This document shows, in pieces, positions 15,790-63,344 of a DNA stretch of 64,000 nucleotides. The notes beneath the pieces were generated by a model. That model was not told the DNA's origin. It ran no database searches and saw only the letters and a program-made list of their open reading frames with translations. The position numbers were made by a program, and so were the translations under genes. Positions within the stretch are counted from its first letter, which is position 1; every line of letters starts with the position of its first letter. Origin of the DNA: Eledone cirrhosa (Eukaryota); the NCBI GenBank assembly GCA_964016885.1, contig OZ024757.1:23064001-23128000 (forward strand), written 5' to 3'.

Positions 15790-16360
15790 AAACATTTTGT
15801 TACCATATTTCTAATGAAAAGCACTGTCTATGATTTTAAAATCATTTTAGAATAATCAAGAATTTTGAGGTATTTAGTAATATAATCATCATTAAGTTGG
15901 ACTTTAGAACATAACTTAACTCCCTCTCTCTTATGATGGAAGGTTTTTAACTAAAAAATAAAATCTTGAACCCTTTCATTATCATATTTCTAATTTAAAA
16001 AATAACCTATAATTTTCAAATCATTTTGAAAATAATCAAGAATTTAGATGAAATCGGTAATATAACTAACTTTATCATAATTAAGTTCAGTTTGGGACAT
16101 AACTTAACCAAGGTTTTTATGTGAAATTATGATGGAAGGATTTTAGCTAAAAATAAACACATTAACTCTTTCATTACCATATTTCTAATGAAATTCACTG
16201 CCTATGGTTTCCAAATAATTTTGAAAGAAACAAAACAAAAACAAATCGAGACTAGTGGAAGGATTTAATAACGTAACTAACTCTCCCATTAATACGCTGG
16301 TATTTGGAACATAACTTAACAAAGGTTTTTTACATAAAATTATGATGGAAGGTTTAAGGT
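15790..16360 (+). repeat. three tandem ~190-bp fragments of a piggyBac-like MITE end
   Basis: Recurrent ta(c/t)catatttctaat..gaacataacttaac..ttatgatggaagg; ccctt/ttaa-type end. Confidence 0.6.
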
Positions 16361-16372
16361 AAATATCAAAGC

Positions 16373-16648
16373 ATGGATGAACTGAGGGAGAAACTGGGTA
16401 TAAGAAGAATCACAAGTAGTGTACAGGAGAGAAGACTGCAACGGTATGGACATGTGATGTGCATGGATGATTATTTCTGGGTGAAGAAGTGCCAAATAAT
16501 CCCAGTGGAGGGAGACCACAGTGGAGGAAAACGAAGAAAGATCTGGATGGAAGTGATGAGAGCTGATCTCAGATCTCATCACTTCCAGATAGAGAGATGC
16601 TGTTTGAGAAGGACCTGTCCAACCCATGCAAATGTGGAACAGATGTAA
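16373..16648 (+). mobile_element. RTE LINE ORF C-terminal fragment
   Basis: ELREKLGIRRITSSVQERRLQRYGHVMCMD..VKKC..VEG...GKRRKIW. Confidence 0.85.
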
Positions 16649-16650
16649 AA

Positions 16651-17358
16651 TAATTGTTTCTACTTTTGGCAACAAGGCTAGCATTATCCCAGTGCATTAC
16701 TGGTACTTTATTTTATCGAATCCTGTAAGGATGAAAGGCAAAGTTAACCTCGGTGGTATTTGAACTCAGACTGTAAAGGGGCGTAACCCTATGCCTCAAA
16801 GCATGGCGTCCGACCCTCTACCAATACTGCCAATCCACCGCCCTTGCCAATCCAAATAATGGTTTCTTATATAGGCACAAGGCCAGTAATTTGAGGGGAA
16901 GGGAAAGTCGATTAAATCGACCCCAGTGCGTGACTGGTACTTTATTTTATCGACCCCCCATAAGGATGAAAGGCAAAGTTAACCTCGGTGGTATTTGAAC
17001 TCAGACTGTAAAGGGCCGTAACTCTATGCCCTCAAAGCATGGCGTCCGACCCTCTACCAATACTGCCAATCCACCGCCAATCCAAATAATTGTTTCTACT
17101 TTTGGCACAAGGCCATCAAATACCCAGTACATTACTGGTACTTTATTTTATCGACCCCCGTAATCCAAATAATTGTTTCTACTTTAGGCACAAGGCCAGC
17201 AACTACCCAGTGCCTCACTGGTACTTTATTTTATCGACCCCGTAAGGATGAAAGGCAAAGTCAACCTCGGCGGGATTTGAACTCAGATCGTAAAGGGACG
17301 TAACTATGCTAGAAAGCATGGCGTCCGACCCTCTACCGATACTACCAATCCACCGCCT
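16651..17358 (-). mobile_element. cluster of four head-to-tail SINE B copies
   Basis: Copies at ~16651, 16857, 17086 (partial), 17170, each separated by aatccaaataat. Confidence 0.9.
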
Positions 17359-19560: not shown

Positions 19561-19930
19561 TCTCTTTCACCTGTTGCTACATCTGTTACTAGGTTACAAT
19601 AGCCACAGAGATAATACTCACTTTGCTTCTTCAAGAAACCCTGTCAGCCATTGTAAAGAATCTGTATATATTTTAATCAGGTCTCCACTTGATTCTCTTG
19701 ATAATAACTCCTACACCAATTAGGGAGACATTATTTTACCGAGGTTAACTTTGCCTTTCATCCTTAAAATAAAGAACCAGTAATGCACTGGGTATTGCTG
19801 GCCTTGTGCCAAATGTAGAAACAATTATTTTATGCTCATTCTTCCAGATTTAATGAAAACACTACACATACACACATGCATACTTATATTACAGCTGTCT
19901 ATGAAACATATCTATCTATCTTTATATATA

Positions 19931-20588
19931 CAGGGTGCGGACGATATTTGTTCGCAGGATTACTGTCTAGGAAAAAATAACACAGTAGTTTTATTTTTTA
20001 AGATTTATTTATCAAACTTGGGTCAGTTTGTCTTCATGACTTGTTCTTTCGATCTCATTCGATAAACCCGCCATTGGCTTTGATGACAGCCTCAAGGTGG
20101 TGGCCTCGGAACCGGCTACAGGCCTTCGTCACTGTCCCCCAACTTAGGCCCCTAAAGGCACTTGAGATCCTGGCCTTCAGATCGTCTTTCGTATTGCAGC
20201 TAGATCTGTTGGTGTCTCGGTCCACTGTACGTGCCACAAAGAAGTCGAGGGGGTTGCAGTCAGGCGAGCTGGGAGGCCAAATGTCAGGTGAAGTGTGGTC
20301 GACGAAGTTCTCTGACAGCCAGGCTTGGGTCTTTCGGCTGGTATGGCAGGGTGCTGAGTCTTGCTGCCAAACGTACGGCCTACCTGCAGCTACCTGGTTG
20401 ATCCAGGGCTTTACTACCTCGCTCAGAACGCGGATGTAGCCATCGGTGTTCAGCTTGAGGCCCTCAGGGAAGAAGTGAGGTGGCATGATGTCACCTTGAC
20501 TGCTGACGACACCTAAGACCAATGTTGTTGTTGGAAACTTTGTCTGCATGACTCTGGGCACGTCTTTGGATGAAACAGCAAGCCACCT
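19931..20588 (-). mobile_element. 5'-truncated maT (DD37D) Tc1/mariner transposon with right TIR
   Basis: TIR ta|cagggtgcggacgat; transposase frame open from 20588 to stop at 20055. Confidence 0.9.
20055..20588 (-). pseudogene. DD37D transposase catalytic C-terminal half
   Basis: QQDSAPCH..WPPSSPDCNPLD with 37 residues between the 2nd and 3rd D; ends AVIKANGGFIE*. Confidence 0.9.
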
Positions 20589-20739
20589 ATATATTATTAT
20601 ATATATATATTATTAGGGTAAATATTGATGCAATTCAATTCAAGCACTCAACGTTCTTTTTCCACATAGGAGTGACGGAGTAAATATCGAATAAGGAAAA
20701 GCGAAGTAGTTTCAGATGTTCAAGTCCTTTAATAATAAT

Positions 20740-20918
20740 TGTTTCTACTTTTGGCACAAGGCCAGCAATTATTCCAGTGTATTACTGGTACTTTATTTTA
20801 TCGACCCCGTAAGGATGAAAGGCAAAGTTAACCTCGGCGGGATTTGAACTCAGTCCGTAAAGGGACGTAACTGTGCTGCAAAGCATGGCGTCCGACCCTC
20901 TACCGATACTGCCAATTC
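20740..20918 (-). mobile_element. SINE B inserted in the left palindrome arm
   Basis: Flanked by duplicated aataat; absent from the right arm. Confidence 0.9.
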
Positions 20919-20924
20919 AATAAT

Positions 20925-20998
20925 GCTGTGATATATATTTCTATGACGACACTGGCCACACTGTTCTGTGTGCGAGTGTCGTGTCATCATCAGACAGC
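20925..20998 (-). ncRNA. type I hammerhead ribozyme (inverted copy)
   Basis: Reverse complement of 21179-21252 with intact core. Confidence 0.8.
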
Positions 20999-21178
20999 TT
21001 GTTACATAATAAGGTTGCTTCCGAGGCAATCCAAACTGAATCGACATGGAAACGGATGAAGTTCGTGCTTTGGGGTTTTTCACAAGGGAACGGATGAAAA
21101 ACCCAAAAGCATGAACTTCATCCGTTCCCATGTCGATTCAATTTGGATTGCCTCGGAAACAACCTTATTATGTAACAA

Positions 21179-21252
21179 GCTGTCTGATGATGACACAACA
21201 CTCGCACACAGAACAGTGTGGCCAGTGTCGTCATTGAAATATATATCACAGC
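21179..21252 (+). ncRNA. type I hammerhead ribozyme
   Basis: gctgt-CTGATGA-long stem II (tgac..cacac/gtgtg..gtca)-GAAA-t[atat]a-TC-acagc; stem I gctgt/acagc. Confidence 0.85.
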
Positions 21253-21422
21253 ATTATTATTAAAGGACTTGAACATCTGAAACTACTTCGCTATATATAT
21301 ATATATATATAAAGAATTAGTATATCTACCAACATATATATACAGATGCATACCTATGCTAGCAAATATATAGGTTTTGTCTTAGTAACTTTGTCGTTCA
21401 ATGCAAGGGGGTGCAGAACAAT

Positions 21423-21585
21423 TATATGAAAGACGTAAAATAAGAAGATTATAAAAATTAACTTACTAAAATTTCACTCCAACTAATTAGTTTCTGAAAG
21501 GGAATAAACATAGTTTCAGAAACTAATTAGTTGGAGTGAAATTTTAGTAAGTAAGTTAATTTTTATAATTTTCTTATTTTACGTC

Positions 21586-21594
<9 letters not shown>
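21423..21594. repeat. fold-back palindrome with 3' half of a hammerhead
   Basis: Arms 21423-21499 / 21514-21594; GAAA-c[taatta]g-TT; same tail also at ~5970-6012. Confidence 0.8.
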
Positions 21595-21828: not shown

Positions 21829-22276
21829 AGGAGGAGGTTATAGTTCACTTGAAGCATTGTGTAATGAGGTATAAACGTTTGAATATGTATAATAAAGCCA
21901 AAACAATGCAGGTATGGACATAGAAAAAGAATGCAATTGCAAAAGATATTGTTGACAATTCGTCTTTTACCTTAGATTTATATTAAACGTCCTTAATTTT
22001 TGAGATAATATCTCTTCTTCAGAGGGAAATATAGGTCTCAAACCAGCGTTCTAAATATCTTGTCAAGCCATGCTGCCAGGAAATAGTATAGAGTATCTGT
22101 TCTATCTCTAATGTCAAAGAGATATGAAGAAGAGATATTATCTCGAAAATTAAGGACGTTTAAAATAAATCTAAGGTAAAAGACGAATTGTCAACAATAT
22201 CTTTTGAAATTGCATTCTTTTTCTATGTCCATACCTGCATTGTTTTGGCTTTATTATACATATTCAAACGTTTATA
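21829..22276. mobile_element. TA-flanked fold-back element with degenerate hammerhead core
   Basis: Arms 21870-22021 / 22125-22276; (c)tgaaga-a-gagat-att-atctc-gaaa at inner ends. Confidence 0.75.
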
Positions 22277-40695: not shown

Positions 40696-41211
40696 TCTAT
40701 ATATATAAAACTGTAGTTGTCTGTCTGTCTATCGATTTTTGGCACACATCTCCTCTTAGAATCTCTCACGGAATTGCACCGAAATTGCTATACTTGTACA
40801 TTGAGCCCTAGCGAAGACATCGGAAAAAAAAAATTTCAATTTGACCCACCCTATGTGACGAAATCGAATATAATGTATCGATTTTTGAGCGTAAGTTATC
40901 AGTTATTTCCCTTTGTTCTGTTTACATTGAGCGTCTTACGTAAAAAATTACGCTGGCTTTCTCAGTCTTTGTTAATAAATAACCAGTGCAGTTTCTATCC
41001 CCAGCATCCTCTTTTGTTATAACATTCGGGTTATCGTTATGTTTTCTTAACTTCATAAGGCATATTGTTGGTTGAGGGAATATTAATCAAAAACACCACA
41101 TGCAAGTCTGCACAGTAGACACTACAGTTTTTAAGCCAAAAAAGAAACTTAACATTGTAACTTTAACACAGCTACTGAGCGACCCCGAGCAACGCCGGGC
41201 TTTACTGCTAG
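40696..41211 (+). mobile_element. non-autonomous Helitron
   Basis: a|TCtatatatataaaa 5' end; subterminal hairpin cccg-agcaacgc-cggg; CTAG|t 3' end; no TSD. Confidence 0.85.
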
Positions 41212-41272
41212 TACATTATAAAGAAAGAAGAAACATTAGACATAAATAAATAAATACCTATTTTTTCTTCAA

Positions 41273-41366
41273 ATTCTCGACTGAACAGTTTCGTGGCTAC
41301 TTTGCAAAAATCCTATATCATTGAGATGTAGTATTCTTGTTAGGTTTGCCAACTTATCAAGAGAAT
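41273..41366 (-). ncRNA. U3-A8 variant hammerhead (inverted copy)
   Basis: Reverse complement counterpart of 41528-41621. Confidence 0.65.
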
Positions 41367-41527
41367 ACCTCATTTAAAGTTTCAAAACAGGTTTGCATCG
41401 CGTGAAAGAATCCCCGGGAAGGGATTTAGGTCCGTTTCTTGACCGCTGTATCACGTGATAGGCCCCCCTCCGCCTCCTCGGGATTCTTTCGCGCGATGCA
41501 GACCTGTTTTGAAACTTTAAATGAGGT

Positions 41528-41621
41528 ATTCTCTTGATAAGTTGGCAAACCTCGCAAGAATTCTACATCTCTATGATATAGGATTTTTGCAAAGTAGCCA
41601 CGAAACTGTTCAGTCGAGAAT
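41528..41621 (+). ncRNA. type I hammerhead ribozyme, U3-A8 core variant
   Basis: attctc-TTGATAA-long stem II-GAAA-c[tgttca]g-TC-gagaat. Confidence 0.7.
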
Positions 41622-41680
41622 TTGAAGAAAAAATAGGTATTTATTTATTTATGTCTAATGTTTCTTCTTTCTTTATAATG

Positions 41681-41745
<65 letters not shown>

Positions 41746-53070: not shown

Positions 53071-53410
53071 GCTGGCTGCATTCTCCGCCATGCTGCCCTC
53101 AACGAGGTCATAAAGCATGGCTTGGACGCTGCAGGCTTCCCTTCCCAGCTCAAGCCGGTGGGGCTAAACTGAAGGGACGGCAAAAGGCCAGATGGCATGA
53201 CCATCTTCGCGTTCCGCAGTGGCAAACCCCTCGTCTGGGATGCTACTTGCACCGACACTTTCTGTAGCCGCAACCTGGTGCAGTCTGCGACTAACCCAAG
53301 TTCTGCTGCACGTTGGGCTGAGGAGGCCAAGCTCCTCAAATACCGGTCACTCTCCGACAGGTTTGCAGTTGTACCCCTGGCAGTGGAGACTTCTGGTGTC
53401 CTCAGCCCCA
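53071..53410 (+). pseudogene. restriction-like endonuclease fragment of a CRE-type non-LTR retrotransposon
   Basis: RHAALNEVI..DGKRPDGMT..GKPLVWDATCTDT..AEEAKLLKY..PLAVETSG; one stop codon. Confidence 0.85.
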
Positions 53411-53585
53411 GGCCTACCTCTGATAGGTCCTCAATATCAGAGGTTGTGGGTACCAGCTTGATGTTCAGTTGGGCAAATTTTCCAGTGAGATAACATCAAA
53501 ATGACAGATATTAAATTCATAATAACAACAATAATAATAATTATAATGATTTCTTCACAATAACAATATCATAGTCAATAATAAT

Positions 53586-54017: not shown

Positions 54018-54095
<78 letters not shown>

Positions 54096-54242
54096 GTGTT
54101 AAACAATATTCAATGATTATGTCAAAGAATGAGTTTTACAGTAGATTGGAAGCACTCAACTGTAAAATAATTTTCTGGAGTTATTACTACCTTGATTAAA
54201 TCTTAACCATTTAACATCTCAGGGTATGTCATGTATCATTAT

Positions 54243-54295
54243 ATTTTGTCTGATGAGGTCGTACTGTTGTACATCTGAAATATGTATAATAAAAT
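54243..54295 (+). ncRNA. type I hammerhead ribozyme in TA-flanked island (54091-54330)
   Basis: attttgt-CTGATGA-ggtcgtac[tgtt]gtacatct-GAAA-t[atgt]a-TA-ataaaat. Confidence 0.8.
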
Positions 54296-54329
54296 GTAAT
54301 TGATCAAAAGAACATCTATTTTATTAGTA

Positions 54330-54340
54330 CTTATATTTTA

Positions 54341-54720: not shown

Positions 54721-54935
54721 TATATACCCTAAGTATTGAGTACTTTGGTGCGTTATGGTCCACCTGGTTCCTTACCACATTTCTATCGTTATATATATAT
54801 ATATATATATTTGTGTTTGTCTGTATATATATATATTTGTGTTTGTCTGTGTATGTATGTATATATATATATATATATTTGTGTTTGTCTGTGTATGTAT
54901 GTGTATATATATATATATATATATATTTGTGTTTG

Positions 54936-56176: not shown

Positions 56177-56990
56177 CATATATACATATATATACATATA
56201 AATATACATATATATATACATATATATATATACATATATATACATATATATATATATATACATATATATATACATATGTATATATATATATAAAAAGAAA
56301 ATTTTCGCTCTACATGGCTGATCAGTGACTGTGTATTTTTGAAAATAGCATATATTTTCACTAGCTCTGACAGTTTGGCAGGTGAACAGTGAGCTGTACT
56401 GATGAAGGGTGATACCCAGAAACATTAGTGTCTGCAGTTCTGTTCGCATGCCAACACAGGAGCAATGAAGTGTTCATTCCACTGACATGGCTATACAATT
56501 GAGGCTTGTTTGCATAATTGCAAACGAATCAAATGTTATAATTAATATTAAAAAAACTCAGATTACATTTATATATATGTATATGTGCATATATGTATGT
56601 ATATATATATATGTATATAAATATGTATATGTATATATATATATGTATATATATATGAAGATATAAGTATATATATACATATTTATACATATATATATGT
56701 GTGTGTGTAGATATATATATGCATAGAAATACATATTTATACATATATATACATATACATACACATATATATATATATACATATACCTATATACATATAT
56801 ATATACATAAACATACATATACATATATATATATGTATACATATATATATATATATATATACATATACACATACATATACATACATATACGTATATATAT
56901 ATATAATATATACATATACATATATATACACACACATATATATAATTAGGTATGTGTGTGTACATAGTTACACACATGTGTGTGTGTATG
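55715..56990. repeat. (TA/TACA)n field interrupted by island 56293-56570
   Basis: Direct reading. Confidence 0.9.
56392..56439 (+). ncRNA. compact type I hammerhead ribozyme
   Basis: agctgta-CTGATGA-a-gggt[gat]accc-a-GAAA-c[attagt]g-TC-tgcagtt; GUC cleavage triplet. Confidence 0.85.
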
Positions 56991-60987: not shown

Positions 60988-61265
60988 CAATTCTCAGACC
61001 GGGTGATGTGTTGTTTCCTTGAGCAAGACACTTTATTTCACATTGCTCCAGTTTACTCAGCTGTAGAAATGAGATGATAGGGGCTGGGGTCCCTATCATT
61101 CCACTGCAAAGTGGTCGTGGAGGTGCCACGGCAAAAAGCACCCAGCACTCACTGTAAATGAGGTTGGTGTTAGGAAGGGCATCCAGCTGTAGACATCAAG
61201 CCAGAATCAGTTCCCGTCCCACCCTTGCAAGCAGGGAGAAAGCAGACGTAAGATGATGATGATGA
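60988..61265 (+). mobile_element. SINE A, 5' truncated
   Basis: Matches the 3928 copy from caattctcagacc. Confidence 0.9.
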
Positions 61266-61298
61266 TATATGTGATGATGTCTGTCTCTGTGTATAGCA

Positions 61299-61346
<48 letters not shown>

Positions 61347-61350
<4 letters not shown>

Positions 61351-61665
61351 TCATTATCATCATTTTATGTCCACTTTTCCCTGCTTGCAAGGGGGAACTG
61401 ATTCTGGCTTGATTTCTACAGCTGGATGCCCTTCCTAACACCAACCTCATTTACAGTGAGTGCTGGGTGCTTTTTTTCCATGGCACCTCCACGACCACTT
61501 TGCAGTGGAATGATATGGACCCCAGTCCCTATCATCTCATTTTCTACAGCTGAGTAAACTGGAGCAATGTGAAATAAAGTGTCTTGCTCAAGGAAACAAC
61601 ACATCACCTGGTCTGAGAATTGAACTCACAACCTTTCGATTGCAAGGCCAATGCTCTAACCACTA
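61347..61665 (-). mobile_element. SINE A
   Basis: Reverse complement of the 3928 copy; short inverted head piece at 61666-61690. Confidence 0.9.
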
Positions 61666-61752
61666 AGAGCATTAGTCTTGCAATCGAAAGTATATATATA
61701 TATATATTCCATGATATTAAATAAATGGAAACTATATTTATAAAACCATATT

Positions 61753-61817
61753 TATTTTATTATATATATTTCGAGGGCAACCAAGACAACATTGGTACGC
61801 TTTCTTCAGATAAAATA
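61753..61817 (-). ncRNA. type I hammerhead ribozyme in ~280-bp TA-flanked element (61710-61985)
   Basis: tattttat-CTGAAGA-..taccaa[tgttgtc]ttggt..-GAAA-t[atat]a-TA-ataaaata. Confidence 0.8.
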
Positions 61818-61984
61818 CAAAGTTTGTTTTATAAATAGAGATGTACCCATGAAAATTATACCTTATCGGTTGGAAATTCACTGGATAGTCTGGAATATTT
61901 ACTCCAGTTACCTGTTGAGTGTTCTAAATCAGTTATAAACATTTATGTTTGTTGGACTTCCAACAAATTAAATACAACTTCTGC

Positions 61985-62030
<46 letters not shown>

Positions 62031-62035
<5 letters not shown>

Positions 62036-62250
62036 AACGAGTAGGACCCCAACGGCTGAGCTCAAGCCATTTCGACGGCTAATTCTGGATGGCTAATTCT
62101 TGACTAAATTTTAGTCCAGAATTAGCTGTCGAAACGACTTGAGTTCAGCCGTCGGGGTCCTACTCGTTCCTATTGCCCACTCTACTACCCTAAGTATTGA
62201 GTACTTTGGTGCATTATGGTCCATCTGGTTCCTTACCACATTTCCTTCAT
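62031..62250 (-). mobile_element. TA-flanked head + fold-back palindrome
   Basis: Palindrome 62031-62173; head 62250-62174 with aagtactcaa..gagt. Confidence 0.75.
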
Positions 62251-62446
62251 TATATATATATATATATATATATATATGCAAAAGTTTTATATAAAATTGT
62301 TGGGTTACAACAAGTAAATATTTTATAACTGATATAAAGCACTCGACAAGTTTTGGAGTAGAAAACCTACCAAACCAGCTTCTTATATAAAGGTTGGTCA
62401 ATATTTATGGTACGTCAAAATTATTTATAAAACTGTTTATATATTG

Positions 62447-62512
62447 TATTTTATCTGAAGAAGGCATGCCATATTTTTAATATGGTATCCCCGAAATATG
62501 TATAATGAAATA
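62447..62512 (+). ncRNA. type I hammerhead ribozyme in ~280-bp element (62278-62555)
   Basis: tattttat-CTGAAGA-aggcatgccatat..atatggtatcccc-GAAA-t[atgt]a-TA-atgaaata. Confidence 0.75.
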
Positions 62513-62579
62513 AATATGGTTTTATAAATATAGTTTCCATTTCTTTAATATCGTATATATAAATATATATATACGATAT

Positions 62580-62796: not shown

Positions 62797-62842
62797 TATA
62801 TACGATATTAATAAATGGAAACTATATTTATAAAACCATATT

Positions 62843-62907
62843 CATTTCATTATACCTATTTCAGGGATACCACATTAAATTATGGTATGCCTTCATCAGA
62901 TAAAATA
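62843..62907 (-). ncRNA. type I hammerhead ribozyme
   Basis: tattttat-CTGATGA-aggcatacca..tggtatccct-GAAA-t[aggt]a-TA-atgaaatg. Confidence 0.8.
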
Positions 62908-63344
62908 CAATATATAACAGTTTTACAGACACCCTCACATATATAAACACAGTCAGTGCAGAAATTATAACAATCACCGACTAGATAGCTTTCAAAAATT
63001 ACCTGAGTTATGTGTTGTCTAAGAGATAGAGTTTGAACCTCGAAACCCAGCATCTATTAATCTATTATATATAACTTCCCAGTTAATGCATCCCAAACAA
63101 TTATTTTGTCAATGCATGAAGACTGAAAGATTATAGTGCCATGGGAAAATTTCAAATCAAAAACAGGAAGCTGAAGATTTAATACATCACTGTGTATATT
63201 ATTCACAGCAGCAGTTATGAAATAATTGAGGTGTTTGCAATTTATATAATGCCTTTAGGATTGTGGTTGATATATTGATGTGTCTGTCCTACCCTTACCC
63301 TTGCTAGCAGAGGGGGGAAAAAAATGATGGACCTTAAAGTGATG

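Follow-up and report, generated by a model that had tools for sequence, protein, structure and literature searches.

How did a fold-back that carries a hammerhead ribozyme motif in each arm come to lie between two TA-rich tracts at positions 20617-21292 of the window, that is, the whole stretch of 64,000 nt analysed here? We suggest that it is very probably a dead insertion of the 3' end, consisting of the pseudo-LTR region and a type I hammerhead, of an element that either belongs to a Penelope-like family or depends on the enzyme of one as its non-autonomous partner. The assignment is a structural one and makes no claim to membership of a named clade.

The element opens with an 83-bp head (20617-20699), continues with an inverted arm into which a tRNA-type SINE has inserted, and closes with a forward copy that stops at (TA)n. 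This agrees with the original prediction of a head, an inverted arm and a forward arm with a hammerhead in each, as seen from the pairing of the arms and from the presence of the motif on both strands. The left target side is a TA-rich tract (20588-20616) and the right one is a (TA)10 (21292-21311). The outer part of the inverted arm (20700-20739, minus strand) pairs with 21253-21292 over 40 nt at 100% identity, and overlaps the SINE tail or target duplication by approximately 6 nt. The inner, 5'-truncated part (20919-21082, minus strand) pairs with 21095-21258 over 164 nt at 96%. The arms differ at 7 of 204 nt, all in the inner part, and five of the seven differences are transitions. At 0.0036 per site per million years, a rate given in PMC13282606, this divergence corresponds to roughly 5 million years, a rough figure since the rate may not be that of the host and gene conversion is possible.

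The forward copy (21080-21292, plus strand, 213 nt) is also 5'-truncated and runs straight into the (TA)n. At the inversion junction (21080-21082) a 3-nt microhomology, TCA, is common to both copies. We rejected 21080-21094, which includes the apparent 12-bp loop of the hairpin, as a neutral loop; it is the native start of the forward copy, because loose ends in three of four sequencing runs (X4, X22 with 68 reads, and X5) extend upstream of 21080 with one common sequence. This upstream family sequence was not found within the window.

The head has no second copy within the window. The inverted arm meets it exactly at the 3' end of the family, with no TA remnant in between. The two ends of the element are alike at just 8 of 44 positions, so there are no inverted repeats at both termini, and with the head outside the left arm the arms are not terminal; the element was thus rightly set apart from MITEs of the TIR type. 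The head is best read as a one-sided 3' tail of the inverted copy, which would place it on the minus strand. This reading uses its presence on one side only and its being carried by the family; its length of 83 nt does not favour it.

In each arm, a stem I of 5 bp is followed by CUGAUGA, a 45-nt stem II region, GAAA, the palindromic UAUAUA, UC and stem I again. The motif of the inverted arm spans 20925-20998 (minus strand), with a predicted cut after 20930, and that of the forward copy spans 21179-21252 (plus strand), with a predicted cut after 21247, 45 nt from the 3' end. A motif scan placed them at 20993(-) and 21184(+), as expected if both strands encode the ribozyme, and found 8 motifs in the window versus a mean of 0.01 (maximum 1) per shuffle in 200 shuffles. 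A scan demanding three pairs at the base of stem II misses both ribozymes of the element. The distance from the predicted cut to the 3' end is 45, 45, 50 and 49 nt in four insertions. Rfam gave no hammerhead in the element, either at the gathering threshold or at E<=10, and the microRNA families that it matched below threshold over the hairpin were discarded as hairpin noise.

In the present copy, the fold of lowest energy sequesters G8-A9 and lies 6-7 kcal/mol below the ribozyme fold. Both arms have an A at 21193, opposite another A. The family majority in run X22 has T at 21193 (216 of 286 reads) and G at 21197 (269 of 281), and these letters restore in-register stem II pairs. Among 40 of the 66 rows of family variants, the ribozyme core has no variants, and variants are found at N7 (87/304) and in loop III (76/453). 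Stem II variants at the facing positions 21195 (77/280) and 21231 (161/419) are not phased. Judged by these letters, the family looks like a type I hammerhead under selection and the present copy like a weaker variant of it. When the whole element is folded, the ribozyme bases find nearly all their partners outside the ribozyme (72 of 74 and 73 of 74), on either strand in the opposite arm. Cleavage in read-through RNA of the element would be unlikely under this folding model: on either strand the antisense arm is made before the sense arm and would then pair with it, which would leave the ribozymes as passengers.

The forward copy was compared with four public sequencing runs, matching 1117 contigs in X1, 31 in X4, one in X5 and 829 raw reads in X22. 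The family is a high-copy one in these runs. X5 comes from another organism, and its single low-depth contig is too little for dating the family. In X1, the summed depth is approximately 14,000 at 21103-21113 versus approximately 224,000 at 21246-21256, two intervals at a similar distance from either end of the matching stretch; summed contig depth is not a copy number. Depth drops toward the 5' side in X1, X4 and X22, a slope that fits 5' truncation.

Six joints were listed, three of them skips and three strand switches. The strand-switch joints, all in X1, are 21116/21222, 21121/21226 and 21170/21223, and they cluster at 21222-21226 in stem II of the ribozyme. In one X4 contig the head is joined directly to 21091, with 27 of 28 letters as in the window. 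The head is thus a part of the family, and copies differ in their inner junction, as had been anticipated. It should be noted that each alternative junction comes from one contig, and that assembly graphs can mis-join palindromes. Two minority alleles are found in both arms, namely the A at 21193 and the lack of an AT that 228 of 323 reads show after 21160, which a single event or a single subfamily would produce.

In X1, 28 contigs diverge upstream of 21121 into a different common sequence; they may represent a major subfamily whose 5' part is different. An open frame that crosses the left arm was dropped as coding sequence, since its counterpart in the right arm contains a stop and a 2-nt insertion, found in most reads, throws it out of register. 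Pattern scans for relatives gave no matches in viral contigs and none in a metagenome collection; a further scan gave one match, L001, which was rejected as a chance likeness over 28 nt.

The SINE (20734-20919, minus strand) sits in an (ATT)3 run just after stem I of the hammerhead in the left arm, and this run is intact in the right arm, in line with a SINE that inserted into the left arm only. It has many relatives in the window. Its minus strand has an A-box-like motif (20914-20903), a B-box-like motif (20849-20841) and an (ATT) tail; for the boxes we used what we take to be the usual patterns. ARAGORN found no tRNA in the SINE. By its sequence, the SINE looks like one of an octopod host. 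SINEs have probably inserted more than once, and independently, into the ATT run that follows the ribozyme, because SINE ends found at or near it in other copies, in X4 (21253 and 21271) and X22 (21255, 24 reads), have letters unlike this SINE. Copies of the left-arm SINE are clustered, in tandem or nested in one another, at 37840-38662 and 16649-17352, and an inverted pair of SINE-like copies surrounds a long (TA)n at 60988-61622.

To the left of the element lies the 3' half of a DD37D Tc1/mariner transposon (19930-20587, minus strand), with 37 residues between the second and third catalytic aspartates, a spacing that we take to denote the maT family. The fragment matches the Sleeping Beauty transposase (E=3e-8) and Pfam DDE_3 (E=0.0018, below the Pfam cut-off). 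The original prediction had the element abut the truncation point of this transposon. The frame does stop, at 20587, but 29 nt of TA-rich DNA lie between that point and the element. By BLAST, the fragment matches neither the element nor any other part of the window, and the 5' half of the transposon was not found in the window. Two further frames may encode LINE C-terminal fragments, by resemblance, one of the restriction-like-endonuclease type (53173-53493, plus strand) and one of the RTE type (16358-16648, plus strand); neither frame gave a Pfam match.

An origin by Penelope-like insertion would account for the layout as follows. In brief, we infer that an endonuclease nicked both strands of a TA tract. 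The forward copy would stem from reverse transcription primed by the first nick at site 1, which lies 45 nt downstream of the hammerhead cut; the second nick would have primed it at site 2, approximately 83 nt further 3' on the RNA, and so produced the tail and the arm in inverted orientation. Site 1 would correspond to the end of the arm and site 2 to the outer end of the head. Both cDNAs would have stopped early and been joined at the 3-nt microhomology, and the (ATT)3 run in the inverted arm would have received the SINE at a later time. Copies lacking the arm would be those in which the second cDNA stopped at site 1.

Several structural features of Penelope-like elements are found here, namely 5' truncation with a retained 3' end, an adjoining inverted 5'-truncated copy with a variable junction, a type I hammerhead motif, and an AT-rich or microsatellite target, with TA tracts on both sides. 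The element was proposed to be an insertion product of this kind, and its layout does fit the Penelope-like insertions described in PMC8557442 and PMC4209133. No reverse transcriptase or GIY-YIG open reading frame was recognised in the list of frames of the window, 4 of 172 of which were scanned against Pfam. This tells against the Penelope-like origin, and so do two further observations. The tail is 83 nt long versus the published 30-40 nt, and three insertions in the window consist of a head and a forward body without an inverted arm, two of them near-equal in length. These arm-less insertions weaken the case because they also fit a short element with the head as its true 5' end.

The layout recurs within the window. 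Of the local inverted repeats, 11 in all, nine have one end at (TA)n and none has both ends there, with a background of 3.3% per side; eight of the nine end within 1 nt of (TA)n as listed, and the element counts once its outer 40 nt are included. The figure is inflated, since BLAST alignments of inverted repeats can run on into TA tracts, and the repeat at 61633-61690, counted among the nine, is a SINE-head palindrome. The fold-back at 39106-39594 has a head of approximately 85 nt, a hammerhead in each arm and (TA)n at its forward end, and is unrelated in sequence to the element. More fold-backs with one end at (TA)n are found at 4367-4503, 21423-21594, 21870-22276, 39647-39741, 41209-41685 and 62031-62173.

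The heads of five hammerhead-bearing insertions have in common the motif AAGCACTCNAC followed by GGAGT, located at 20642-20682 (plus strand) in the element. AAGCACTCNAC has four exact matches in the window versus 0.06 per shuffle, all in heads of hammerhead insertions, and a fifth, variant copy is found in 61700-61990. Three of the five insertions with the head motif have no inverted arm. Hammerhead insertions without an adjoining inverted arm are located at 54090-54340, 61700-61990(-), 62272-62561 and 62797-62925(-), and the first three of these are organized as head, body, hammerhead and (TA)n.

Some further observations concern these loci. The head motif is carried by 54090-54340, 61700-61990(-) and 62272-62561, and the insertions at 61700-61990(-), 62272-62561 and 62797-62925(-) are of one family. 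The fold-back at 21870-22276 has a hammerhead-like core with one mutation per arm. A lone short piece at 5961-6013 is the TA-adjacent arm end of 21423-21594, and another, at 54725-54799, is the outer end of the head of 62031-62260. At 56391-56440 there is a lone type I hammerhead-like motif of another design, with an 8-bp stem I and a short stem II.

The alternative that survives best, although we hold it to be unlikely, is that the family is a short (approximately 250-300 nt) non-autonomous hammerhead element or a retrozyme monomer. The head would then be the true forward 5' part, and the fold-back would have arisen when an inverted copy of the 3' end joined behind it. The insertions at 54090-54340, 61700-61990(-) and 62272-62561, which have no inverted arm, suit this explanation, and the middles of the last two are 63 and 62 nt long; yet these middles show no significant colinearity, as 188 of 1000 shuffles reach their score. 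The X4 record with the head joined to 21091 would give a unit of approximately 287 nt, and retrozyme monomers that carry type I hammerheads are reported at 150-450 bp (PMC7229834; 10.64898/2026.07.22.740005). However, what normally lies upstream of 21080 is a sequence other than the head (68 X22 reads with a median loose length of 86 nt, and also X4 and X5), and arm and head meet exactly at the 3' end of the family with no TA remnant. No head-to-tail copy of the unit, in direct orientation, is found within the window, and no go-back joint was listed in the four runs for the part of the unit compared. The piece at 54725-54799, in an analogous family, keeps the outer end of the head and fits a priming site.

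Considerably less likely still is a single insertion that was later made palindromic at the locus by a template switch during replication or repair. The microhomology at the junction and the minority alleles common to both arms would suit such an event, but the inverted arm ends exactly at the 3' end of the element, where it gives way to family sequence and not to the flanking (TA)n, and the one-sided layout is seen again in unrelated families of the window and, in the runs, at other junctions. A MITE or a fold-back DNA transposon bounded by long terminal inverted repeats, its ribozyme-like motif acquired by capture or chance, draws on the long inverted arms, the TA flanks and the mariner-type transposase nearby, yet is hardly credible given the ends that do not match, the neighbouring transposon fragment that resembles nothing in the element, the ribozyme motif far above chance, and copies that are not uniform in structure, and in its fixed form it was rejected on the other inner junctions, the depth that falls toward the 5' side and the occurrence of the same head at another junction. 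Identical junctions together with true terminal inverted repeats, the combination that would have told against the original prediction, are thus not what the copies and the ends of the element present.

As a single locus, the element is of little importance. For annotation, it matters that such fold-backs resemble MITEs or microRNA precursors, as the microRNA-family matches over the hairpin, all sub-threshold, illustrate. For mechanism, many junctions from one genome could test the two-primer model by computation alone. We speculate, as a tentative extension that we would not expect to hold in full, that TA-targeted short hammerhead elements form a very large class in this genome, with a long (approximately 80 nt) conserved tail motif, graded from arm-less copies of head and forward body to 200-bp fold-backs. 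Such a class would be an in vivo record of two reverse transcriptases at work on the same RNA from different start sites, the second usually stopping at site 1 or at stem II of the ribozyme. If this is true, the insertions are also a major and so far unannotated source of long hairpin RNAs in a group of animals in which A-to-I editing is heavy.

The known systems closest to the element compare with it as follows. In Penelope-like insertions, an inverted 5'-truncated copy adjoins the first one, a tail of 30-40 bp extends one end, and the targets are microsatellites; the origin of the inverted copies and tails is stated to be an open question (PMC8557442). In AT-rich DNA, a Penelope protein cuts both strands and extends them; it begins at two internal sites of the RNA, one on each side of the tail, and does not depend on ribozyme cleavage (PMC11167929). 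In Schistosoma, hammerheads on opposite strands lie 100-700 bp apart, and the hammerheads of Penelope-like elements have low activity in vitro (PMC4209133). Penelope-like families are annotated in Octopus vulgaris (PMC13282606), and type I hammerheads are reported in giant squid (PMC6962438). Among the papers listed in searches of the open literature, none dealt with cephalopod hammerhead fold-backs; the family may already be within the repeat library (Zenodo) or the supplement of PMC13282606.

Non-LTR retrozymes of metazoans (PMC7229834; Li et al. 2026, preprint 10.64898/2026.07.22.740005) are, like the element, non-coding and low in GC with a type I hammerhead, and the axolotl HHR_Amex2 shares a 2-bp helix III with a tetraloop and a U-U at the base of helix II. 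They are defined, however, by head-to-tail tandem units and circular RNA (PMC7229834 and PMC8969392), whereas the copies of the element are inverted, with no tandem unit within the window. The dispersed type I hammerheads of the pseudo-LTRs of Penelope-like elements (PMC4209133) share with the element a short helix I (5 bp), a long helix II, a small palindromic helix III and two motifs on opposite strands, which are approximately 190 bp apart in the element. The element differs from them in its helix III of 2 bp with a 4-nt loop, which is canonical-like and not minimal, and in having U-U or U-A in place of the G10.1-C11.1 pair. The endonuclease-bearing Penelope-like insertions (Penelope/Poseidon, Neptune, Nematis and Hydra; PMC8557442 and PMC11167929) combine a 5'-truncated copy with an adjoining inverted 5'-truncated copy, an extension at one end, an AT-rich or microsatellite target without a clear duplication and a hammerhead near the 3' end. 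All of this is found in the element, which differs in the length of its extension and in having no open reading frame or tandem pseudo-LTR in this copy. The element is a further case of this published pattern, one that recurs many times in the window.
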